A stretch of 24,000 bases of DNA from positions 194,845 through 218,844 of the forward strand of contig NZ_LKHP01000002.1 of the NCBI RefSeq assembly GCF_001440545.1, written 5' to 3'. Positions 7,131 to 24,000 of this stretch are shown here, in pieces (within the stretch, counting starts at the first letter, position 1; each line of letters opens with the position of its first letter). The translations under genes and the position numbers were made by a program. This stretch comes from Caloramator mitchellensis (GTDB taxonomy: Bacteria; Bacillota; Clostridia; Clostridiales; Caloramatoraceae). The notes below the pieces were generated by a model. The model had not been told where the DNA came from. It made no database searches and saw only the letters and a program-made list of their open reading frames with translations.

Positions 7131-8066
7131 TTAAAACATATCCTTCTTAGCAAGAAGGTATGTTACGCCACCAGACATGATAGCAATAATCAATAATACA
7201 AGGTAAAAACCGAACGGATTATCTCCAAATGGAACAGGAACATTCATTCCAAAAAGTCCAGAAACCATAGTTGGAATTGAAAGAACTATAGTAATTGAAG
7301 CCAAAAACTTCATTACTATATTCAGGTTATTTGAAATAATCGAAGCAAATGCATCCATAGTTCCGCTCAATATATTGCTATATATATTTGCCATTTCAAT
7401 AGCCTGCTTGTTCTCAATGATAACCTCTTCTAAAACGTCCTGGTCCTCTGGATATTTTTGCATCATCTCAAGTTTAAGCATCTTTTCAAGAGTTATTTCG
7501 TTGGATTTTAAAGAAGTTGAAAAGTAAACTAGGCTCTTTTCAAGAGATAATAGCTGTATAAGCTCTTTATTCTTCATTGATTTGTGAAGCCTTGCTTCTA
7601 TAATATGGCTTGTTTTGTCTATCTGCTTAAGATAACATAGATAATAGGATGCTACTTTATAAAGTATTTGAAGTATAAATCTTGATTTTTTAAACGTATA
7701 GAATGACTTAACTTTTTTTGCCACAAAATCATCAATCACCTTGTTTTCCTTTAAGCAGATAGTTACGATGAACTTATCGTTTAAAACAATACCTAATGGA
7801 ATAGTATAATATTGCAAAGACTTATCCTTAACATCCATAACAGGTATGTCGATTATGACTGAAGTTTGGTCTCCGTCGATTTCAATTCTTGAGCTCTCCT
7901 CTTCATCAAGCGGAGCTCTTAAAAATTCAATCAAAAGACCAGTCTTTTGCGATACATACTCAAGCTCAGTCTCATTTGGATTTGTAAGGCTAACCCAGCA
8001 GCCGTTTTCGATGCCATCGATTTCAAATGTCTGACCATCGACATTGGTCTTGTATATCTTTAACAT
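7131..8066 (-). CDS. corA: CorA-family Mg2+/Co2+ transporter
   Basis: 311 aa with two C-terminal TM helices and the GMN signature (LFGMNVPVP). RBS AAGGAG lies 7 nt upstream of the ATG. Confidence 0.87.
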   Translation of the reverse strand: MLKIYKTNVDGQTFEIDGIENGCWVSLTNPNETELEYVSQKTGLLIEFLRAPLDEEESSRIEIDGDQTSVIIDIPVMDVKDKSLQYYTIPLGIVLNDKFIVTICLKENKVIDDFVAKKVKSFYTFKKSRFILQILYKVASYYLCYLKQIDKTSHIIEARLHKSMKNKELIQLLSLEKSLVYFSTSLKSNEITLEKMLKLEMMQKYPEDQDVLEEVIIENKQAIEMANIYSNILSGTMDAFASIISNNLNIVMKFLASITIVLSIPTMVSGLFGMNVPVPFGDNPFGFYLVLLIIAIMSGGVTYLLAKKDMF

Positions 8067-8295: not shown

Positions 8296-8336
8296 ATCAA
8301 CAAGTTTATCCACATACTGTTGATAAACTTGTTGAT
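8296..8336. promoter_or_regulatory. Perfect 15-bp inverted repeat (candidate operator) overlapping the predicted peptidase promoter
   Basis: ATCAACAAGTTTATC (8296-8310) and GATAAACTTGTTGAT (8322-8336) are separated by an 11-nt spacer. The predicted promoter is TTGATA (8320-8325), 18 nt, TATAAT (8344-8349). TTATCCACA (8305-8313) lies at the left-arm/spacer junction. Confidence 0.4.
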
Positions 8337-8379
8337 ATTGGAATATAATAGTAATATATGTAAATGATGGGGTGAGGAA

Positions 8380-9756
8380 ATGAAGAACATTTTGAGCTTA
8401 ATATTTACCCTAATGCTGTTTTTCCAAAGCATTGCATATGCAAATGCATTTAATCCACAGAATGTGTATAACACGATAAGAGAACTAACCCAGGATAAGT
8501 ATGCTGGAAGACTTGCTGGGGATAAAGGAAATGAACTTGCCTGTGAATATGTGAATAAAAAATTTTTAGAAGCTAAATTGCAACCCCTTGGGGATAATAA
8601 ATCCTTCTATCAATATTTTACCGCATATGTTCCTTTTGTTGAGGGGGATATTTCCTTCAAAGTTTTTAATGGTGAAAAATTAGTTAAGGAATACGCCTAT
8701 GGTATTGATTATAAGGAAATATATACAGGGGCATCCGTTGGAGGGTTTGTAAGAGGCAAATTATATTCAGATGAAACCTCAAAGGGTGAGATTTATATTG
8801 GAGTGGATTATCCCTATGAAACGATGTCGACCTATGAATTTGATAAGACCCTTGCAGGAAAGGGAATTAAAGCTGCACTCTATTTTTCTGAAAGGCCTAT
8901 GAACTTTAAAAGCACATATAAAATTCAAAATGAATATAAAGAAGGGCTCATTAAGCTATTGATTGATTCAAGGTTATATGAAGAAATAAGAGATTTTTCA
9001 GATAAGGGATACATATTTGAAATAAAAAGCCCTGTAAAAGTTAAAAAAGTTAAAACAAAAAATATAATTGGAGTTAAAAAAGCTGCATCCTCTGAAAAAC
9101 CACCTATAATTTTTTCCGCCCATATAGACCATGTGGGATACGATGCAGGAGGAAGAATATACCCTGGTGCCCTTGATAATGCCTCAGGTGTTGCATTCAT
9201 GCTTGAAATATTAAACGTTTTAAAGGACGTTGAAACTAATAGAGATATAATTTTTATAGCATTTAACGCTGAAGAGGAAGGACTTATCGGCTCATATTAT
9301 TTTGTTAACAGGCCACCAATAAACATTGAAAATGCAGAATGTATAAACTTTGATATGATTGGCTCTCCAAAGGAAATTCCTCTATCTGCCCTGAGCTCCA
9401 GCCAAAGAAGCGATGAACTTAGTGCATTTGTTAATGAGCAAAACCTTAACAGATTATACGAAGACAACAGCGACCATGCTCCATTCAACATGAGAAACAT
9501 AAGCGCTGTTACGCTCATACATGACGATATGGAAAAGATTCATACAACATTTGATACCATTGAAAATATAGATGTTAAGAAAATAGAAGAGGCATTCGAA
9601 ACTATAGAAAAATATTTATTAGAGCGAGGCATCTTATTGACGAAACCTGAAGAACAGGAAAATGCTAAAAACACATATTTGATTTATGTAGCACTAATCC
9701 CTATTCTTGCTGCAGGTGTATATATTGGTATCAATAGAAAAAAATTTCAAATATAG
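8380..9756 (+). CDS. M28-family zinc aminopeptidase, secreted or membrane-anchored
   Basis: Signal-like N-terminus. M28 metal-ligand blocks are SAHIDHVGY, PGALDNASGVAFMLE, FNAEEEGLIGSYYF, NFDMIG and SDHAPF. There is a C-terminal TM helix. RBS is GGGGTGAGGA. Confidence 0.82.
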   Translation: MKNILSLIFTLMLFFQSIAYANAFNPQNVYNTIRELTQDKYAGRLAGDKGNELACEYVNKKFLEAKLQPLGDNKSFYQYFTAYVPFVEGDISFKVFNGEKLVKEYAYGIDYKEIYTGASVGGFVRGKLYSDETSKGEIYIGVDYPYETMSTYEFDKTLAGKGIKAALYFSERPMNFKSTYKIQNEYKEGLIKLLIDSRLYEEIRDFSDKGYIFEIKSPVKVKKVKTKNIIGVKKAASSEKPPIIFSAHIDHVGYDAGGRIYPGALDNASGVAFMLEILNVLKDVETNRDIIFIAFNAEEEGLIGSYYFVNRPPINIENAECINFDMIGSPKEIPLSALSSSQRSDELSAFVNEQNLNRLYEDNSDHAPFNMRNISAVTLIHDDMEKIHTTFDTIENIDVKKIEEAFETIEKYLLERGILLTKPEEQENAKNTYLIYVALIPILAAGVYIGINRKKFQI

Positions 9757-10228: not shown

Positions 10229-11339
10229 TTACTTCTGGCTTTCGGATTTTAAATATGCGTTTATGAACTCATCTATTTCTCCATCCATTACTGCCTGGAT
10301 GTTACCTATTTCAACGCCTGTTCTGTGGTCCTTAACAAGGGTGTATGGCTGGAATACATAGCTTCGAATTTGGCTTCCCCATCCTATATCCTTCTGGTCA
10401 CCTGTTAAGTCCTCAATCTTTTCTTTTCTTTCTCTTTCCTTCATTTCAATGAGCTTTGACTTTAGCATCTTCATAGCCATTTCCCTGTTGGAATGCTGGC
10501 TTCTTTCTGTCTGGCAGGATACAATTATTCCGGTTGGAATGTGGGTAATTCTAATCGCAGATTCAGTCTTGTTTACATACTGACCACCTGCACCGCCTGA
10601 CCTGTAGGTATCAATCTTTAAATCCTCATCCCTTATTTCTATATCCTGTTCTTCTGTAATTTCAGGCAAAACTTCAATTGATGCAAAGGAAGTGTGCCTC
10701 TTTCCTGCTGCATCAAAAGGAGAAATTCTAACAAGCCTGTGAACTCCCTTTTCTGCCTTTAAATAACCATAGGCATATTCTCCTGTTATCTCAAGAGTAA
10801 CGCTCTTTACCCCTGCTTCGTCACCAGGCAGAAAATCCACTGTCTCAACCTTGTATCCTTTTCCTTCTGCCCACCTTGTATACATTCTAAGGAGCATCGA
10901 TGCCCAGTCGCAGGCTTCTGTTCCGCCTGCACCAGCGTGAATAGTCAATATTGCGTTGTTTTTATCATATTCACCAGAGAGCATTGTTTCAATTCTAAAT
11001 GCTTCTATCTTTTTTTCTATGTCCACTCTCTCATTTGTTATTTCTTCAAGATGTGAATAATCCTCTTCCTCATCACAAAGTTCAATAAGAACCTCAAGGT
11101 CTTCAACCCTCTTAAGAAGGCTCTCATACCTGTCTATCTTATCCTTAATGCTCTTTGCTCTTTGAACAACCTTTTGAGCCTCTTCTACATTGCCCCAGAA
11201 GTCTGCGTCCTGCATTTTTTCCTCAAGCTTTGCGTGTTCTTCCTTTAACTTAGCGATGTCAAAGAGAAGCCCCCACTTCGTTTAGGATTTTCTTCATTGG
11301 TTCAATCGCTGAATAATGTTCTTCGAATTGTAAATGCAT
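10229..11339 (-). CDS. prfB: Peptide chain release factor 2, expressed via a programmed +1 frameshift. Frame 0 is 11339-11262 and the +1 frame is 11260-10229.
   Basis: The listed ORF carries the SPF and GGQ motifs (RISPFDAAGKRHTSF, SGGAGGQYVNK) but lacks the N-terminus. Upstream, ATG at 11339 (RBS AGGAAGGTGA) encodes MHLQFEEHYSAIEPMKKILNEVGASL and then CTT TGA C, preceded by an internal SD-like GGGGG. Shifting +1 at CTT-T reads DIAKLKEEHAKLEEK into the listed ORF. Confidence 0.93.
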
Positions 11340-13966: not shown

Positions 13967-14503
13967 TTATACTTCTGGTTCTATTATGCCGTAATTTCCA
14001 TCTTTTCTCTTGTAAATTACATTGACTTCCTCAGTATCTGCATTTCTAAATACGAAGAAGCTGTGTCCTAAAAGTTCCATCTCAAGCATTGCTTCTTCAA
14101 GGTCCATTGGCTTAACTGAAAATCTCTTTCTCTTTACAATCTTTCCTTCTTCCTCATCAACATCTCTATCCCTGTATTCTGGAATATCTAAGAATCTTAA
14201 AGTTTCACCATTGTGAACCCTCTTTTGAAGCTTTGTCTTTTGCTTTATAATTTGTCTTTCTATCTTCTCAACTACATTATCTATAGATGAATACATATCA
14301 CCTGTTGATTCTTCACCTCTTAAAATCATTCCATTGAATGGAATTGTAACTTCGATTATCTGTTTGTTCTTTTGAACTGAAAGGAAAACGTGAGCCTCCT
14401 GTTCTGGACTAAAATACCTTTCAAGTTTGCCAAGCTTTTTTTCCACTGTGTCCTTTAAAGCGTCTGTTAACATTATGTTCTTCCCAGTGATCATGAATTT
14501 CAT
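13967..14503 (-). CDS. hpf: Ribosome hibernation promoting factor, long form (RaiA/YfiA/YvyD family)
   Basis: The true start is Met90 of the listed ORF (MKFMITGKNIMLTDALKDTVEKKLGKLERYF...) with RBS AAGGGGT. It has an S30AE-type N-terminal domain and a C-terminal dimerisation domain (PMDLEEAMLEMELLGHSFFVFRNADTEEVNVIYKRKDGNYGIIEP). Confidence 0.92.
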   Translation of the reverse strand: MKFMITGKNIMLTDALKDTVEKKLGKLERYFSPEQEAHVFLSVQKNKQIIEVTIPFNGMILRGEESTGDMYSSIDNVVEKIERQIIKQKTKLQKRVHNGETLRFLDIPEYRDRDVDEEEGKIVKRKRFSVKPMDLEEAMLEMELLGHSFFVFRNADTEEVNVIYKRKDGNYGIIEPEV

Positions 14504-14631
14504 AAGATCTACCCCTTTCAAAGTAAGATAAGGGAAAAATATTTTTCTTATAATAATTTTAATATTTTCTGACAATTTAATCAAGTATTTTTTGTCAAAA
14601 TGTGAAATATGTGAATATGTTGATAAATGTC

Positions 14632-14689
14632 TGTGGATAGTGTGGATAACTTTGTGCATAACTTGAATTTCAATGGTTTTGTATCCACA
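14632..14689. promoter_or_regulatory. Cluster of DnaA-box-like 9-mers upstream of hpf
   Basis: Reverse complements: 14632-14640 gives CTATCCACA, 14641-14649 gives TTATCCACA (perfect), and 14653-14661 gives TTATGCACA (fits TTATNCACA). On the plus strand, 14681-14689 reads GTATCCACA. Confidence 0.45.
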
Positions 14690-14765
14690 GCATTTGTTAG
14701 TAGTAAAAATTATGATTATTGATATTATTTTATGCAAATTAAAAAAATAAATACAAAAAGGACAT

Positions 14766-14974
14766 GGCACTGATTAGCTGACCTGGTCTTTGACCCCACA
14801 CTCGCCTGCTGGAAGTTTTGCTCAAGGTGGTATGCCTCTCACTAATCCTTCTCTCGGTTTTCCCGGCAGGACTTACTTCTAAACCGCACCATGCTCATCA
14901 GACCTTATCTGACTTACGTGGATCGTTTCGCCTGCGGCTGGCATCGACTTTCAACCACAGACCTAATCAGCGCC
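14766..14974 (-). ncRNA. Structured ~209-nt ncRNA, best candidate the raiA-motif RNA (comFC-raiA/hpf intergenic class)
   Basis: A GC-rich island in an AT-rich genome. A closing helix forms between GGCGCTGATTAG (5') and CTAATCAGTGCC (3'). Internal local hairpins include GTGG..TCG..GCC-AGCCGCA-GGC-GAAA-CGA..CCAC and CCTGC/GCAGG. No coding potential is apparent. It lies between comFC and hpf, the context reported for the raiA motif, and a T-rich run follows the 3' end. Confidence 0.6.
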
Positions 14975-14981
14975 ATATCCT

Positions 14982-15674
14982 TTATGTTGCAAATGTTAAA
15001 ACTATTATTTTTTTTGCATTTGATTTTTTAAGAGCTACTGAATTGAAGTGGGCTGTTGCACCGCTTGTAAATACATCATCAACAAGCAAAATGTTCTTAC
15101 CAGACAAATCAGTGCTGCACTTAAAAACTCCTTTTACATTATACCATCTATTTTGGTCTTTGAATAGTGTTTGTGATTTAGTATCCCTTATTTTTTCAAC
15201 GCACTCTAAAACTTTTTTTCCTGTTAAATTGGATATGTTCCTGGCAATTAAACTTGCCTGATTATAGCCCCTTATTCTTATTCTTTTTTTAGAAGATGGA
15301 ACAGGAACTATTATGTCAAAATCTATATTAAAATTATTTATAACATCCACCATAAATTTTGCAAATACATTTGCAAGTTCAACCTTTTCCTTGTATTTTA
15401 ACCTTCTAATCATTTCCTTTGGTAGTCCTTCGTATCTGCATACTGAATAAACTTCGTCAAATTCTACTTTGATTGGATAATTTCTTTGCACCTTGGAAAA
15501 TATTGATTTGTTTAAAACCTCAAAATAACATTCTTTGCATAATCCATAATCATAAACTTCAATCCTTCCGCAGTTTGCACAAACACTTTCTGACGGAAAA
15601 ATTATCTCTAAAAGCCCATCTATAGCTTCACATATTCCTTTTCCCAGGAAACTTTGTTTAAACTTCGTATACAT
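14982..15674 (-). CDS. comFC: ComFC-family phosphoribosyltransferase-like competence protein
   Basis: N-terminal Cys pairs (CANCG...CKEC) and a PRTase motif ILLVDDVFTSGAT. It overlaps the upstream gene by 55 nt. Confidence 0.8.
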   Translation of the reverse strand: MYTKFKQSFLGKGICEAIDGLLEIIFPSESVCANCGRIEVYDYGLCKECYFEVLNKSIFSKVQRNYPIKVEFDEVYSVCRYEGLPKEMIRRLKYKEKVELANVFAKFMVDVINNFNIDFDIIVPVPSSKKRIRIRGYNQASLIARNISNLTGKKVLECVEKIRDTKSQTLFKDQNRWYNVKGVFKCSTDLSGKNILLVDDVFTSGATAHFNSVALKKSNAKKIIVLTFAT

Positions 15675-17227
15675 TTCCTTGCTAAGGATATCTCCTCCGT
15701 TTCATTTTCGGCAACAAATAAAACCTCCCCTATTCTTTTGTTCCTTCCCGTTGACGCCATTGCTGAAATATAGATTAATTTTTCTGCATTAAAATAATTT
15801 GAATGTGCATTTAAAACTATAACATTTATGTCCTCAACCAATTGTCTTGAACATCTTATGTCGCTCGTTATAAAAACGTTTTTGCTGCTTCTTAAAGCCC
15901 TTGCAAAGTCGTCGTATTTAATATCTTTTTCAATTAAATCCATATCAATTCCACAGGAGACTAAAAAATTTAATATTTCCTGATGCCTACTTTCATCCGG
16001 GTAAAATATTACAGTTTTTGTTCCCTCTTTAATCGAAAACTTCAAAACATCTACAGCCATTTGAGGGACAAAAACTTCAAATTCGCTTAAAAATCTTGCA
16101 GTTTCCACTCTAGGTTCGGATATAAGATGGCTCCCATGTGCAAATGGAATATATATTAATTCATTGAAATGTTCTTTATTTCTTAGTGGGTTTGCTGAAA
16201 TATAAATAAATTTTGCCTTATCCTTAGCTGACCTTTTTACAACATAGCCAAAGTCAATATTTTCTTCAAAAGCACTATTTAAATCGTTCAATACTACAAG
16301 GTCGAATGATTTATAAAACCTAATTAAATTTGATTTATAGGCTATAACTATATCAAAATTTCTATAGTCCTCTATATTTTTGTTAGCAATTCCTATTCTT
16401 TTTTTAGTAAATGTATTTGACAGTATAGTATAAACCTCATTTATTTCATTAAAACTTGTAACGTATAAAACCCTTCCGCCTCTTTTAAATACTTCAGCAA
16501 ATGATGAAAAAAGCATCTTAATAGAAAATGAATGTGGAGCACTAAAAATAATGCTGCTAACTTTTTTTGATTTTGTAAATTTTAATATTTCCTGTGAAGC
16601 CTCTTCTTCAATTAAGTTCAATGACGGTTTTTTGTATGAAAAATCATTTAGCATCAAATAATTGTAATTGTCCGCCGCATATAGTAGAACATCATCTTGT
16701 TTAAAGCCAAACAGACACATTTCACATGGTTTTCTCTTGCAAAAATAACATTGCGGTTTGCCCTTGTTTTCTAAAAATGCAGGTGATATTTGTATTCTTC
16801 TTTCGCAGTATAGCATTTGGACTATATCCAAAAGAGTTTCATATTGAATAAAATTTTGCTTTGCAAATTCAACCAATTCTCTAAATGTAAGTATTTTACC
16901 AACTATAGCGCCTTCAACTAATTCAACATCTTTTTTAGAAGGCAGATTATACCCTTCCTTTAACCTTCTTTTCCACATTTCTATGGACTGTTTTTGAAGC
17001 ATAGGGATTGTTCTTTTTCCACTTATCTTAAAAATTTTATCAAACAACCTCGTTGAATACATGTTTTCAATCGATTCCTTTGCCTTATCGATGTCCATCA
17101 ACCCTAAAACTTCAAAATTATCAATCCTTCTTGTTTTCTTTAATATTTCATAATCAACGAGTGGATTAAAGGAAAAATCATATACAGTCCCTCTGCTGCC
17201 ATCTGCCCTATACAGGTAAACTTCCAC
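15620..17227 (-). CDS. ComFA-like SF2 helicase-fold protein with degenerate ATPase motifs
   Basis: GTG start after GAGGTGG. It has a Cys4 cluster CYFCKRKPCEMC. The region collinear with the ComFA motor has SAPHSFSIKML where the Walker A is expected, LVVLNDLNSAF where DExD is expected, and ISANP where SAT is expected. No GK[ST] P-loop occurs anywhere in the 535 aa. Confidence 0.65.
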   Translation of the reverse strand: MEVYLYRADGSRGTVYDFSFNPLVDYEILKKTRRIDNFEVLGLMDIDKAKESIENMYSTRLFDKIFKISGKRTIPMLQKQSIEMWKRRLKEGYNLPSKKDVELVEGAIVGKILTFRELVEFAKQNFIQYETLLDIVQMLYCERRIQISPAFLENKGKPQCYFCKRKPCEMCLFGFKQDDVLLYAADNYNYLMLNDFSYKKPSLNLIEEEASQEILKFTKSKKVSSIIFSAPHSFSIKMLFSSFAEVFKRGGRVLYVTSFNEINEVYTILSNTFTKKRIGIANKNIEDYRNFDIVIAYKSNLIRFYKSFDLVVLNDLNSAFEENIDFGYVVKRSAKDKAKFIYISANPLRNKEHFNELIYIPFAHGSHLISEPRVETARFLSEFEVFVPQMAVDVLKFSIKEGTKTVIFYPDESRHQEILNFLVSCGIDMDLIEKDIKYDDFARALRSSKNVFITSDIRCSRQLVEDINVIVLNAHSNYFNAEKLIYISAMASTGRNKRIGEVLFVAENETEEISLARKCIRSLNKVSWEKEYVKL

Positions 17228-17236
17228 AATACCACC

Positions 17237-19462
17237 TCATTTTAGCTCGGTTATAATCTTAACTATTCTTTCATTCAGGCCTGAATATCTATCTGCAATC
17301 TTTTCATTTTCAATCATAAATTGAAGTGCCTGCTTCATTCCAACAAGAACAACAAGTTTTTTAGCCCTGGTCACAGCCGTATATATTAGGTTTCTTGTCA
17401 TCAGCATAGGAGGTCCGAAACTTACTGGGACGACTATGACAGGGAATTCGCTTCCTTGGCTTTTATGAATAGTAATTGCATAGGCAAGGTCAAGCTCATC
17501 AAGGCTAGTAAAATCATAGGTTACCCTTTTTTCATCGTCGAATATAACTGTTGCCTTCTGCTCTTCATTATCAATTTTTTCTATAAATCCTATATCACCA
17601 TTAAAAACCCCTATCCCCTGTCCTTCACCTTCTAATGAAACTAAGCTGGTCCATTCTATGTTATAGTTGTTTTTGGTTTGCATGACCTTGTCGCCTTCTC
17701 TAAATATTATATCCCTTACTTCCTTCTCTTCCTTCGTGCTGGATGGAGGATTCAGTATCCTTTGAAGTTCTTTGTTTAAATTAATTATGCCATTCTCCCC
17801 CTTCCGCATAGGGGATAGGACCTGTATATCCCTTAACGGGTCAAAGCCTTCTTTAAAGGAAGGCAGCCTTCTATCAACGAGGTTTAATATTTCTTCTAAT
17901 ATGTCCTGAGGATTGCTTTTTGATATAAAGAAAAAATCCTTGTCCTTCTCATTCAGATATGGCATTTCACCACTATTTATTTTATGCGCATTGATTGCAA
18001 TAAGACTCTCATTTTTTTGTCTAAATACCCTATTCAGCCTCTTTACTTTAATACCTTTGCTATCGATTATATCCCTTAAAACATTTCCAGGTCCAACTGA
18101 AGGCAGCTGGTCAACGTCCCCAACTATTATAAGCCTTTTGCCAATCGTAATTGCCTTTAAAAGGCTGTTCATCAAAAGAATATCAACCATAGAAGCCTCA
18201 TCTACTATTATTACATCCTCATCAAGTGGATTTTTTTCATCCCTTGAAAAGATTGGTCCATCATCGGATTCTAAAAATTCCATCTCAAGCAGTCTATGAA
18301 GTGTTTTAGCCTCTTCTCCTGTTGCTTCTGTTATCCTCTTTGCCGCCCTTCCAGTTGGTGCACAGAGTGCAACCTCCATTCCCTTTTTCTTGAATAGCCT
18401 TATAATGCACTTAATAATAGTTGTCTTTCCTGTTCCAGGACCTCCTGTTATTACGCAAACTCCATTTATCAGTGCTTCCTTAACAGCATCAATTTGTTCA
18501 TCAGCAAGTTTAATGCAGCTTTCCTTTTCAAACTCAGCTATTTCATTCGTTATCCATTCTTCATCCTCTTCAACCGTTTGAAGCGATAATTCTATTATTT
18601 TTCTTGCAACTTTTGTTTCTGCATTGTAGTAGGAACTTAGATAATATGCGTCAGAACCGTTTATTTTATCGTATCTTATATCCTTTGATTCCTCTAAGCT
18701 TGCAAGTTGATTTTCTATAAGCTCTGAAGGTATATTTAGTAGTTTGCTGCATTCATCTAATAGTTCAAGTTTTGGAAGGTAAACATGTCCATTTGAAATG
18801 CAGCTTGCAAGGACATATTTTATACCTGACCTTATTCTATAAACCGAAGTTAAATCAACTCCAATGTTTCTTGCAATCTTATCTGCTGTTTTAAATCCGA
18901 TACCTGAAATTTCATCCGAGAGCCTGTATGGATTTTCCTTAACGACCTTCACAGTTTCGTTTCCGTATCTTTTGTAAATTTTTATTCCAAGGTTTGTTGT
19001 TATTCCATAGCTCTGAAGAAAAATCAAAACGCTCCTTAATTCCCTCTGTTCTACAAATGATTCGGCAATCCTTTGCGCCTTTTTCTCGCCAATTCCCTCT
19101 ACTTCTGTAAGCCTTTCAGGGTTCATTTCCATTATATCAAGCGTGTCCTTGCCAAATTTTTCAACTATTCTTTTGGCAGTAACAGGACCAATCCCAGGTA
19201 TTAGACCTGATGCAAGATATTTTTCTATTCCTTCTATCGTGTTAGGCTTAATCTCTTCGTAGGTTGTAAGTTTAATCTGCTGCCCAAAGGTAGGATGAAC
19301 TACCCACTCCCCTTGAACCTTTATCCTAATGTTTTCGCTTATATAGGGCATAGTTCCAACCACAGAGATAAGGTCGTTGTCATATCTTAGCTTTATAACA
19401 GTATAGCCATTTTCTTCATTTCTAAAAATAACGCTCTCGACAGTTCCTTCAATTTCAACCAT
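17237..19462 (-). CDS. recD2: RecD2-type SF1B ATP-dependent DNA helicase
   Basis: 741 aa with N-terminal OB/HhH modules (GIGPVTAKRIVEKFG), Walker A ITGGPGTGKTT, IIVDEASMV, VGDVDQLPSVGPG and a C-terminal YAITIHKSQGSEF. Confidence 0.9.
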   Translation of the reverse strand: MVEIEGTVESVIFRNEENGYTVIKLRYDNDLISVVGTMPYISENIRIKVQGEWVVHPTFGQQIKLTTYEEIKPNTIEGIEKYLASGLIPGIGPVTAKRIVEKFGKDTLDIMEMNPERLTEVEGIGEKKAQRIAESFVEQRELRSVLIFLQSYGITTNLGIKIYKRYGNETVKVVKENPYRLSDEISGIGFKTADKIARNIGVDLTSVYRIRSGIKYVLASCISNGHVYLPKLELLDECSKLLNIPSELIENQLASLEESKDIRYDKINGSDAYYLSSYYNAETKVARKIIELSLQTVEEDEEWITNEIAEFEKESCIKLADEQIDAVKEALINGVCVITGGPGTGKTTIIKCIIRLFKKKGMEVALCAPTGRAAKRITEATGEEAKTLHRLLEMEFLESDDGPIFSRDEKNPLDEDVIIVDEASMVDILLMNSLLKAITIGKRLIIVGDVDQLPSVGPGNVLRDIIDSKGIKVKRLNRVFRQKNESLIAINAHKINSGEMPYLNEKDKDFFFISKSNPQDILEEILNLVDRRLPSFKEGFDPLRDIQVLSPMRKGENGIINLNKELQRILNPPSSTKEEKEVRDIIFREGDKVMQTKNNYNIEWTSLVSLEGEGQGIGVFNGDIGFIEKIDNEEQKATVIFDDEKRVTYDFTSLDELDLAYAITIHKSQGSEFPVIVVPVSFGPPMLMTRNLIYTAVTRAKKLVVLVGMKQALQFMIENEKIADRYSGLNERIVKIITELK

Positions 19463-19470
19463 AGCATCAC

Positions 19471-19989
19471 CTATTCTAATAACTTTTTGATATCGTAAAT
19501 CTCCCTTAAAAGTAAATATACGTCTTCTTTAGTTGCAGGAAGTTTAAGGTCAAAGTTTACGCATAAATCACTTGATTTAATCTCCCTTTTTAAGATTCTT
19601 ACCAAATTTGTTCTTTTCAAAACAGCCCTTTGGCTTTCTATATAATATATTTTTTGTCCATCCTTTAAAACTATATGTCCCTCTTCTATTTTATCAATAA
19701 AATTGAAATTAATATAGCCATAAACTTCATCTCTTGAAACTTTTGGTTTTCTAATTTTAATTGGAAACATTATTTCATCTTTACTAAATAATAGAGGAAT
19801 AATATTGCTTTGCCCAACAGTTTTTCTGCTTTTTCTTTTAACTTCTTTAAAATCCAGCATCCTTTCCCTGCATATATTTTTCAATACCTGATTTATCTTA
19901 ATTTCATACATTTTTTCAACACCATCCTCTTTTACTATGCATCCATCGCCTATGTTTTTCATATATTGAGGTATAACATACAATAACAT
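19471..19989 (-). CDS. Small protein with weak ComK-family resemblance (tentative)
   Basis: 172 aa with RBS GGGGTGGGAA. The blocks IIPLLFSKDEIMFPIK, YGYINFNFIDKIE and IVLKDGQKIYYIESQRAVLKRTNLVRIL align loosely with ComK blocks as I recall them. It is the first gene of the recD2-comF operon. Confidence 0.4.
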   Translation of the reverse strand: MLLYVIPQYMKNIGDGCIVKEDGVEKMYEIKINQVLKNICRERMLDFKEVKRKSRKTVGQSNIIPLLFSKDEIMFPIKIRKPKVSRDEVYGYINFNFIDKIEEGHIVLKDGQKIYYIESQRAVLKRTNLVRILKREIKSSDLCVNFDLKLPATKEDVYLLLREIYDIKKLLE

Positions 19990-20019: not shown

Positions 20020-20049
20020 ATTATAATACGAACATGTGTTCGGTGTCAA
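20020..20049 (-). promoter_or_regulatory. Strong sigma-A-type promoter for the comK-like/recD2/comF operon
   Basis: The minus strand reads TTGACA (20049-20044), an 18-nt spacer, then TATAAT (20025-20020). The start codon is about 30 nt downstream. Confidence 0.55.
20029..20042. promoter_or_regulatory. LexA/DinR SOS box (Cheo box) inside the promoter spacer
   Basis: CGAACATGTGTTCG is a perfect CGAAC-N4-GTTCG palindrome, lying between the -35 and -10 elements above. Confidence 0.6.
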
Positions 20050-23510: not shown

Positions 23511-23650
23511 AAAAAAACCCCTTCTGACAAGAAGAGGCACAATTTCTATCCTCATCTCCCAGAATGTAATCATTCTGCAGGAATTGGCACCTTGCATTAT
23601 GCAGGTTGCCGGGTTTCATTGGGCCCGTCCCTCCACCTCTCTGGATAAGT
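23511..23650 (-). promoter_or_regulatory. SAM-I riboswitch (S-box) with intrinsic terminator in the metK leader
   Basis: The minus strand reads CTTATCCAGAGAGGTGGAGGGACGGGCCCAATGAAACCCGGCAACCTGCA...TGCAAGGTGCCAATTCCTGCAGA...GGGAGATGAGGA, which carries the S-box core blocks. A terminator follows: CCTCTTC-TTGTCA-GAAGGGG plus TTTTTTT (23511-23537). Confidence 0.9.
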
Positions 23651-23686
23651 TTTACTTATCATATTCTGTTTTCTTGACAATAAAAG

Positions 23687-23756: not shown

Positions 23757-23842
23757 TGGTGGAGCGGGGTGGATTCGAACCACCGAAGGCGTCTGCCAAC
23801 AGATTTACAGTCTGCCCCCTTTGGCCACTCGGGAACCACTCC
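23757..23842 (-). tRNA. tRNA-Tyr (GTA), class II with long variable arm, CCA encoded
   Basis: GGAGTGGTTCCCGAGTGGCCAAAGGGGGCAGACTGTAAATCTGTTGGCAGACGCCTTCGGTGGTTCGAATCCACCCCGCTCCACCA folds manually as a cloverleaf. Confidence 0.92.
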
Positions 23843-23845
23843 ATG

Positions 23846-23921
23846 TGGAGCCGGCTATAGGACTTGAACCTACAACCTACTGATTACAAGTCAGTTGCTC
23901 TACCGGTTGAGCTAAGCCGGC
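23846..23921 (-). tRNA. tRNA-Thr (TGT), CCA encoded
   Basis: GCCGGCTTAGCTCAACCGGTAGAGCAACTGACTTGTAATCAGTAGGTTGTAGGTTCAAGTCCTATAGCCGGCTCCA. The acceptor, D, anticodon and T arms all pair. Confidence 0.92.
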
Positions 23922-23926
23922 GTATA

Positions 23927-24000
23927 TGGTGGGCACAATAGGGCTCGAACCTATGACCCTCTGCTTGTAAGGCAGATGCTCTCCCAGCTGAGCTATGCGC
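23927..24000 (-). tRNA. tRNA-Val (TAC), 5' end truncated by about 2 nt at the window edge
   Basis: ..GCGCATAGCTCAGCTGGGAGAGCATCTGCCTTACAAGCAGAGGGTCATAGGTTCGAGCCCTATTGTGCCCACCA. Confidence 0.85.

Follow-up and report, generated by a model that had tools for sequence, protein, structure and literature searches.

A raiA-motif RNA that abuts comFC in Caloramator mitchellensis, where the promoter typical of its family is not found

Within the window examined here (the whole 24-kb stretch of Caloramator mitchellensis DNA), comFC and hpf follow one another on the minus strand and flank a structured RNA, giving the canonical order of comFC, RNA and hpf on one strand. The comFC gene (14982–15674, stop codon TAA at 14984–14982) encodes a 230-aa ComF-family phosphoribosyltransferase-like protein; its match to the TIGR00201 comF model (E 3e-31) lies below the curated cut-off, and weak matches to Pribosyltran and to a double zinc ribbon are likewise below cut-off. 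The hpf gene (13967–14503) encodes a long-form ribosome hibernation-promoting factor of 178 aa to which the family models align, starting from an ATG at 14503 with the ribosome-binding site GAAAGGGG upstream, and is followed by secA and then prfB. Across the class, raiA RNA has comFC upstream in 74% of cases and raiA/hpf downstream in 66%, on the same strand (PMC10861870). Of the 18 hpf loci closest to that of the window, 17 likewise have the RNA upstream on the same strand. The closest genome in our species collection is that of Caloramator australicus RC3 (locus L001; HPF 89% and RNA 92.6% identical), followed by other Caloramator and Thermobrachium genomes.

The preliminary description of this DNA placed the RNA about 260 nt from hpf and supposed that the spacer holds an independent hpf promoter. 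Both points agree with our reading: the distance from 14766 to the ATG is 262 nt, and the spacer contains a likely promoter (TTGATT-17-TAAAAT, 14556–14584, minus strand) whose two hexamers are identical in C. australicus. The same spacer also carries a conserved cluster of DnaA boxes upstream of hpf; a search of a literature collection on DnaA boxes at hpf returned no report of such an arrangement.

Upstream, comFC is the fourth of four tightly packed genes headed by a LexA-box promoter, which we read from the sequence as a −35 hexamer TTGACA (20049–20044) and a −10 hexamer TATAAT (20025–20020) at 18-nt spacing (20020–20049, minus strand), with the LexA (Cheo) box CGAACACATGTTCG at 20042–20029 between the hexamers. 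An SOS-box-controlled recD2–comF transcript had been proposed, and its LexA-box promoter is real, although the gene order needs amending: a 172-aa ORF (19471–19989) comes first, recD2 (17237–19462) second and a 535-aa ORF (15620–17227) third, before comFC. Searches against Pfam, NCBIfam and PDB sequences left both the 172-aa and the 535-aa ORF without a match. A minus-strand scan from 19800 to the RNA gave no hairpin-type terminator, so that read-through from the operon into the RNA is to be expected in any case.

The RNA stands out by composition, as had been pointed out when it was called the sole GC-rich island apart from tRNAs and riboswitches; a GC scan of the full window gives the same picture. 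GC content is 0.48–0.53 across 14766–14974 (in windows of 100–200 nt), as against 0.348 for the whole window, and the only other 200-nt windows with a GC content of at least 0.48 belong to the cluster of tRNAs with which the window ends. The 209-nt stretch folds with a minimum free energy of −77.5 kcal/mol (z −4.76, none of 200 shuffles being as good), and an extended stretch of 232 nt reaches −92.3 kcal/mol (z −6.56).

The identity of this island is established by the covariance-model search that had been proposed as a check on the raiA assignment, in which the threshold is cleared by a wide margin. The Rfam raiA model (RF03072), whose gathering score is 101.3, covers 14971–14769 on the minus strand with 193.3 bits and E 5.9e-50, aligns at full length (model positions 1–209 of 209) and occurs once in the window; the matched segment has a GC content of 0.51, and its flanks 0.21–0.38. 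A permissive Rfam scan of 14400–15100 returned no other family at E<=1. The region 14980–14760 (minus strand) is thus almost certainly a raiA-motif RNA, also called ModT, of the subtype with P8 and without P2, and the earlier placement of such an RNA between comFC and hpf holds, the full-length match having no competitor. The window copy presents no new fold or function relative to its class, which is on record from over 2,700 species, and Rfam-based annotation would label the RNA.

We next describe the anatomy of the 203-nt RNA core (14769–14971, minus strand, the Rfam match). Minimum free energy folding finds the closing helix but misdraws the pseudoknotted core, and we therefore mapped the published cryo-EM architecture (PMC12968392) onto the window sequence; all published helices and both pseudoknots can be placed with standard pairs. 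The closing helix P1 consists of P1a (14963–71 with 14769–77, 9 bp), P1b (14958–60 with 14778–80, CUG/CAG, nearly invariant, one pair varying in three of 21 sequences) and P1c (14954–57 with 14784–87, UGGU/ACCA, nearly invariant), separated by bulges of GU at positions 10–11 and GGU at positions 189–191. There is no insert between P1c and P3a, where P2 would lie, and for this reason we assign the RNA to the subtype without P2, as in C. acetobutylicum. P1c is instead joined to P3a by a UGAAA turn (14949–14953), which corresponds to the GAA(A) tetraloop-like motif of PMC12968392. P3a (14945–48 with 14922–25) carries P3b (14940–42 with 14930–32), whose apical loop (14933–14938) forms the 5′ strand of PK1; the 3′ strand, UGCGGU at 14883–88, completes six pairs. 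P4 pairs 14918–21 with 14796–99, the P5 hairpin (7 bp) pairs 14907–13 with 14897–14903, and PK2 pairs 14890–91 with 14791–92. Between PK1 and P6 runs the conserved, single-stranded linker UUAGAAGUAA (14873–14882), which agrees with the family consensus UUAGA(C/A)GUAA. The remaining domain (14804–14872, delimited by the Rfam match, the placement and covariation) comprises P6 (14866–72 with 14804–09), P7 (14863–65 with 14855–57) and P8 (spanning 14812–14851), the tip of P8 containing two non-standard pairs relative to the Rfam model. The family description further includes an A-rich internal loop in P3a/P3b and a conserved internal loop in P8, and treats P2 as optional.

Covariation among the window sequence and 20 aligned relatives supports this fold, with the reservations that the structure was drawn on the window's own sequence and that the sequences are related. 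Standard pairs occupy 88.9% of the pair cells, compared with 28–41% when partners are slid by one to three columns, a control that favors the drawn structure because the drawing is based on the window sequence. Two-sided changes occur in 36 of the 66 pairs, and compensatory changes are seen in P3a (three of four pairs), P5 (six of seven pairs), P6, P7, P8 (in P8a) and the inner pairs of P1a. P3a, P3b, P4 and PK1 are paired in 100% of cells, and PK2 in 88%; more than 90 positions are invariant across the 200-nt core. Neither PK1 nor PK2 displays two-sided compensatory changes among the 21 sequences (variation is one-sided or nil), so that both pseudoknots are compatible with the alignment, though covariation among these sequences does not prove them.

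The outer part of P1 required separate treatment, as MAFFT lost the register of this helix (many cells scored as "other" in columns 4–17); the flanks were instead folded locus by locus. In the window, the strand GGAUAUGGC (14972–14980) immediately outside P1a pairs with GCCAUGUCC (14760–14768), all nine pairs being standard, and a U-rich tract UUUUUGUAUUUAUUUUUUU (14741–14759) adjoins the foot of the helix as a candidate 3′ end or terminator. The closing helix hence reaches 18 contiguous pairs (nine of the Rfam P1a and nine extra), or 21 with AAA/UUU, and the mini-helix formed by the flanks has a ΔG of −38.0 kcal/mol, with a z of −7.5 relative to shuffles of these flanks. One extension pair is U·G in the window where C. 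australicus has U-A. The 12-bp closing helix reported initially (GGCGCTGATTAG/CTAATCAGTGCC, eleven Watson–Crick pairs and one G·U) is real, yet it is the inner part of this longer helix of 18–21 bp. In the same way, the start that had been put 8 nt after the comFC stop is about right for position 14974 (7 nt beyond), while the true foot of the helix, G14980, lies 1 nt past the stop codon. The predicted full RNA body accordingly runs from 14980 to 14760 (221 nt, minus strand) and takes in both strands of the extended P1.

Extensions of P1 by ~5–11 bp beyond the Rfam model (6–11 bp at most loci) are common among the relatives (per-locus folding). Outside the Caloramator/Thermobrachium lineage, a perfect TATAAT is present 4–13 nt before the helix foot at all 15 loci, usually accompanied by a −35 box with five of six matches; as the TATAAT ends at this short distance from the first paired base, the predicted transcription start coincides with the P1 foot. 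The extension and this predicted start refine the natural ends of the RNA beyond the Rfam model. A second, independent sample was assembled from metagenome loci picked solely by the RNA-core pattern, giving 44 distinct Firmicutes-type loci: a strong promoter ends 3–15 nt before the RNA in 40, a good −10 element is paired with a weak −35 in two, and two have no promoter. One of the two promoter-less loci (L191) is Thermobrachium-like, with a ComF ORF that abuts the RNA. Over both samples, 55 of 59 loci outside the lineage have a strong TATAAT-type promoter just upstream. Published work agrees with this pattern: C. difficile ModT is driven from one sigma-A start site, located in the intergenic region (PMC11706538), and the C. 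acetobutylicum raiA RNA gene was complemented with its own promoter and terminator (PMC10861870).

Consensus matching finds no −10/−35 pair at the family-typical position in the window, and a comparable promoter is present at none of six loci in the lineage (the window, L001, L066, L005, L006 and L002), the best hits not being conserved in position. The locus of Clostridium simiarum (L003) is instructive in this regard, for there the promoter sits within the last part of comFC itself, with I-L-T codons forming the −35 element and the −10 element overlapping the stop. In the window, TTAACA is retained in the homologous V-L-T codons, and comFC stops three codons earlier than in C. simiarum; because of this earlier end, the position at which a −10 element would be expected falls inside the helix (where it reads TATGGC). 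The window copy is in this sense a natural variant, with the usual strong promoter missing and the RNA abutting comFC.

A second feature lies on the 3′ side of the RNA. No separate hairpin terminator was found between the RNA and hpf by terminator scan, and the layout of a helix followed by a U-tract recurs at L001, L066, L005, L006, L002, L191 and L129. Intrinsic terminators consist of a short GC-rich hairpin, with a loop of 3–8 nt, ahead of a U-tract; viewed in these terms, the element has a U-tract and a GC-containing stem foot, with a "loop" that is the whole 185-nt body; a standard scan makes no call here. A U-tract directly after the foot is present at eight of ten loci without a strong promoter, compared with seven of 56 with one (Fisher p 4e-5, a value that overstates independence in that the promoter-less loci derive mostly from one lineage), and the link between U-tract and promoter loss may reflect a single evolutionary event.

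From these observations we somewhat favor a route in which the RNA in the window would be made from the recD2–comFC operon transcript, or from an internal operon promoter, and then trimmed. The RNA would be transcribed as the 3′-terminal part of the operon (from the LexA-box promoter, or from a promoter internal to the operon), a proposal resting on the want of a recognizable dedicated sigma-A promoter together with a P1 that begins 1 nt past the end of comFC. Nucleases would trim the 5′ end back to the base of the 18-bp helix or cut inside this helix, and the 3′ end would lie in the U-tract adjoining the helix, through termination or 3′ trimming. Some considerations weigh against this route. 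Orthologues are among the most abundant cellular RNAs, which is hard to fit with a LexA-repressed operon unless RNA stability or an internal promoter compensates, and classical terminator hairpins do not take the form of a helix that closes a 200-nt domain. The original suggestion that the RNA has no obvious promoter of its own and is processed from the operon transcript is strengthened by the comparative analysis but not proven. The account as a whole—a raiA/ModT RNA that would function in trans as its orthologues do, with production from the comFC operon as the somewhat favored route—is one that we hold to be highly probable.

More tentatively, the raiA/ModT RNA of Caloramator/Thermobrachium could have lost its housekeeping promoter and become a 3′ module of a LexA-controlled operon, with P1 and the U-tract serving as both terminator and boundary. 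Were this so, the level of an RNA of growth transitions would be tied to DNA damage or competence signals, and the long-noted association of raiA with comFC would here be transcriptional. If the RNA is indeed made from the comFC transcript, the lineage would be well suited to testing the raiA–comFC adjacency (which holds in three quarters of genomes).

The main competitor to operon-derived biogenesis, less probable in our judgment, is that the same RNA is itself a primary transcript: the final ~50 nt of comFC would contain a weak or non-canonical promoter, and a short 5′ leader would be either kept or trimmed. Two candidates can be named: TTAAAA-16-AATAAT within comFC at 15031–15004 (start near 14997), and TAACAT at 14998–14993 (start near 14986). 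The former is a weak consensus with nine of 12 matches, and the retained TTAACA at 14999–14994 resembles a −35 box at five of six positions. A cryptic promoter would be in keeping with the sigma-A promoters of other clostridia (PMC11706538 and the loci compared here) and with the C. simiarum promoter situated within the end of comFC, and the abundance of orthologues argues for dedicated transcription. The TTAAAA-16-AATAAT candidate, however, sits 32 nt upstream of Rfam position 1, at odds with the 3–15 nt spacing of all 40 strong promoters; its −10 element is not kept in C. australicus (AGTAAT/GTAATA, with K-V-I versus K-I-I codons), no candidate is conserved in position across the six lineage loci, and consensus matches are found at chance density (26, against 24.8 expected by chance in AT-rich DNA). 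Several further elements had been considered as promoters by eye, namely a CATAAA overlapping the stop, TAACAT, a sigma-H-like AAAGGATAT and GATGAT hits ~95 nt upstream; these were dropped as being without a −35 element, not conserved in position, predicted to start inside P1, or explained by codons (the DDV motif).

It is improbable that the structure simply stays on the comFC operon mRNA as a 3′ UTR or terminator, where it would end transcription and block 3′ exonucleases. The foot of the helix 1 nt past the stop codon, the adjoining U-tract and the lack of any other terminator after comFC are all compatible with such a role, but a simple hairpin would suffice for it. The full 200-nt core of the window RNA is instead conserved as in trans-acting orthologues, with both of its pseudoknots and over 90 positions that do not vary, and distant clostridial orthologues cross-complement in trans (PMC11706538).

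Much less probable still is a cis-acting leader or riboswitch for hpf, the reading that originally motivated the name and that Rfam's type label reflects. The RNA does lie upstream of hpf on the same strand with no hairpin-type terminator between the two, and RF03072 is typed "Cis-reg; riboswitch" in Rfam; against this, a 256-nt AT-rich spacer (14759–14504) intervenes, with the U-tract, the conserved hpf promoter and the DnaA-box cluster, another gene stands between RNA and hpf at L008 and L010–L016, no expression platform and no alternative terminator/antiterminator pairing was found, and knock-outs elsewhere were complemented in trans (PMC10861870, PMC11706538). Cis control of hpf by the RNA is unlikely, and published experiments conflict with the Rfam label. 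In riboswitches, an aptamer is coupled to an expression platform immediately before the gene under control; raiA RNA resembles them in its complex conserved fold, its pocket-like tertiary structure and its position upstream of a same-strand gene, but differs in having neither an expression platform nor a ligand found to date (PMC5737381, PMC10861870, PMC11706538) and in being trans-complemented in two species, while the RNA in the window is further parted from hpf by the U-tract, the promoter and the 256 nt of spacer.

The chance of a fortuitous GC-rich stretch or of coding sequence is negligible, for although ORFs of 147 aa (plus strand, 14818–15261) and 267 aa (the GTG-extended hpf ORF, 13967–14770) formally span the region, this reading was ruled out by the RF03072 match (E 6e-50), by covariation and by the want of any protein-family match to either ORF, the first of which runs antisense to comFC. 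The similarity to HPF sets in at the 14503 ATG, the family models matching the 178-aa protein from its first residue onward, and we therefore take both longer ORFs to be artefacts; the plus-strand ORF had been judged implausible from the outset, and the family searches bear this out.

The class is no longer wholly uncharacterized, with trans action, a c-di-GMP link, cryo-EM structures and KhpA–KhpB binding now published. Knowledge of an abundant, stable, trans-acting RNA whose loss alters the entry into stationary phase and sporulation comes from C. acetobutylicum and C. difficile. The raiA RNA is complemented in trans, and its knock-out brings sporulation and aggregation defects (PMC10861870); ModT in C. 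difficile is highly abundant and stable and is linked to c-di-GMP (PMC11706538). The fold has been solved by cryo-EM, and KhpA–KhpB binds the RNA in vitro with a Kd of ~2 μM, probably at the exposed linker that corresponds to UUAGAAGUAA, the binding site proposed in the same study (PMC12968392). Lence et al report that ModT binding went undetected in their previous KhpB analyses (PMC11706538), and for this reason KhpA–KhpB is a candidate partner. By analogy with these orthologues, the window RNA would be a stable molecule in which P3a/P3b, P4, PK1 and PK2 make up a compact core and the long P1 forms an arm projecting from it, acting in trans, probably within a ribonucleoprotein (KhpA–KhpB binds orthologues), and it may influence the stationary-phase transition and sporulation, as in C. 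difficile through c-di-GMP levels.

Two characterized members serve for comparison. The window copy shares with C. acetobutylicum Ca-raiA (PMC12968392) the helices, pseudoknots, bulges, GAA(A) turn, linker and comFC/hpf context, and departs from it in a P7 of only 3 bp, in the tip of P8 (which deviates from the model), and in a closing helix of 18 bp followed by a U-tract, with no canonical sigma-A promoter at the typical position. The body of C. difficile ModT, which has short and long isoforms (PMC11706538), likewise ends at the foot of P1, yet its single intergenic sigma-A start is not recognizable in the window. Two other Caloramator loci (L066 and L005) combine a U-tract at the foot with a hairpin terminator ~20 nt further on, an arrangement that would give two isoforms, whereas the window and C. 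australicus have the foot U-tract only, and a single short form is predicted for them.

Small RNAs derived from 3′ UTRs in enterobacteria (CpxQ, SroC) end at the same terminator as the mRNA that precedes them. The route that we propose is analogous, in that the 3′ part of an operon would be released by processing and would end at the operon terminator. CpxQ/SroC-type RNAs are short, Hfq-dependent and act by base-pairing, whereas raiA RNA measures 220 nt, has a fixed tertiary fold and is distributed over two phyla, its route of production in the window being inferred. As raiA/ModT is a widespread structured bacterial RNA, well-characterized members are of some use, and the 18-bp P1 of this copy, coming from a thermophile lineage, may suit structural or biochemical work.

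The DNA separating the raiA RNA from hpf, the gene for the long-form ribosome hibernation-promoting factor, carries five clustered DnaA-box-like sites (14618–14689; sites defined as having at most one mismatch to TTATCCACA). A single perfect box, at 14641–14649, lies within this cluster, which is positioned ~35–105 bp 5′ of the likely hpf promoter. Across the whole window, such sites number 21, compared with 7.7 expected. Comparison with other hpf loci reveals that at least three DnaA boxes fall within 350 bp upstream of the gene in 16 of 81 cases, spread over several genera (background of 0.18 boxes per 350 bp), and that the boxes remain with hpf where another gene splits it from the raiA RNA. 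The placement of these boxes suggests that ribosome hibernation is under DnaA control; our literature search found no paper linking DnaA boxes to hpf. Another cluster, of seven DnaA-box-like sites (8306–8597), occupies the region between the divergent corA-like gene (7131–8066, minus strand) and M28-type aminopeptidase-like gene (8380–9756, plus strand), and extends into the start of the latter.

The raiA RNA family (RF03072) is typed as “Cis-reg; riboswitch” in Rfam release 15; knock-out and complementation in two species show that the RNA acts in trans (PMC10861870, PMC11706538). A different arrangement around this RNA is displayed by eight loci from Lutisporaceae-like metagenome-assembled genomes (L008, L010–L014, L016, and L040), in which no terminator follows the raiA RNA and a conserved leader of ~100 nt is instead found 3′ of it, together with a downstream ORF encoding a small four-cysteine zinc ribbon; hpf is located ~1 kb beyond these two elements. 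This downstream region gave no Rfam match at the gathering threshold.

The operon lying 5′ of the raiA RNA is preceded by a sigma-A promoter of textbook form (20020–20049, minus strand), in which a perfect LexA/Cheo box, CGAACACATGTTCG, is placed between the −35 and −10 elements, upstream of the 172-aa ORF, recD2, and comFC. Two genes of this operon, at 19471–19989 and 15620–17227 (both minus strand), returned no Pfam, NCBIfam, or PDB-sequence match. The 535-aa product of the latter occupies the position expected for comFA and, inspected by eye, presents a Cys-rich CxxC...CxxC stretch and degenerate helicase-like motifs; this protein may represent a ComFA relative that has diverged.

Further RNA elements in the window, all on the minus strand, comprise an FMN riboswitch (2799–2912; Rfam match, 126.1 bits), a SAM-I riboswitch (23549–23651; Rfam match, 91.2 bits), and three tRNA genes (23760–24000), the last of which is truncated by the window end. 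The listed ORF at 2163–2894 overlaps the FMN aptamer, and hence its start is probably over-extended. Immediately 5′ of the listed RF2 (prfB) ORF (10229–11215) is a CTTTGAC motif (11258–11264, minus strand), and the PCRF domain match of this ORF begins at profile position 12, an arrangement that fits the programmed +1 frameshift site usually found in prfB.
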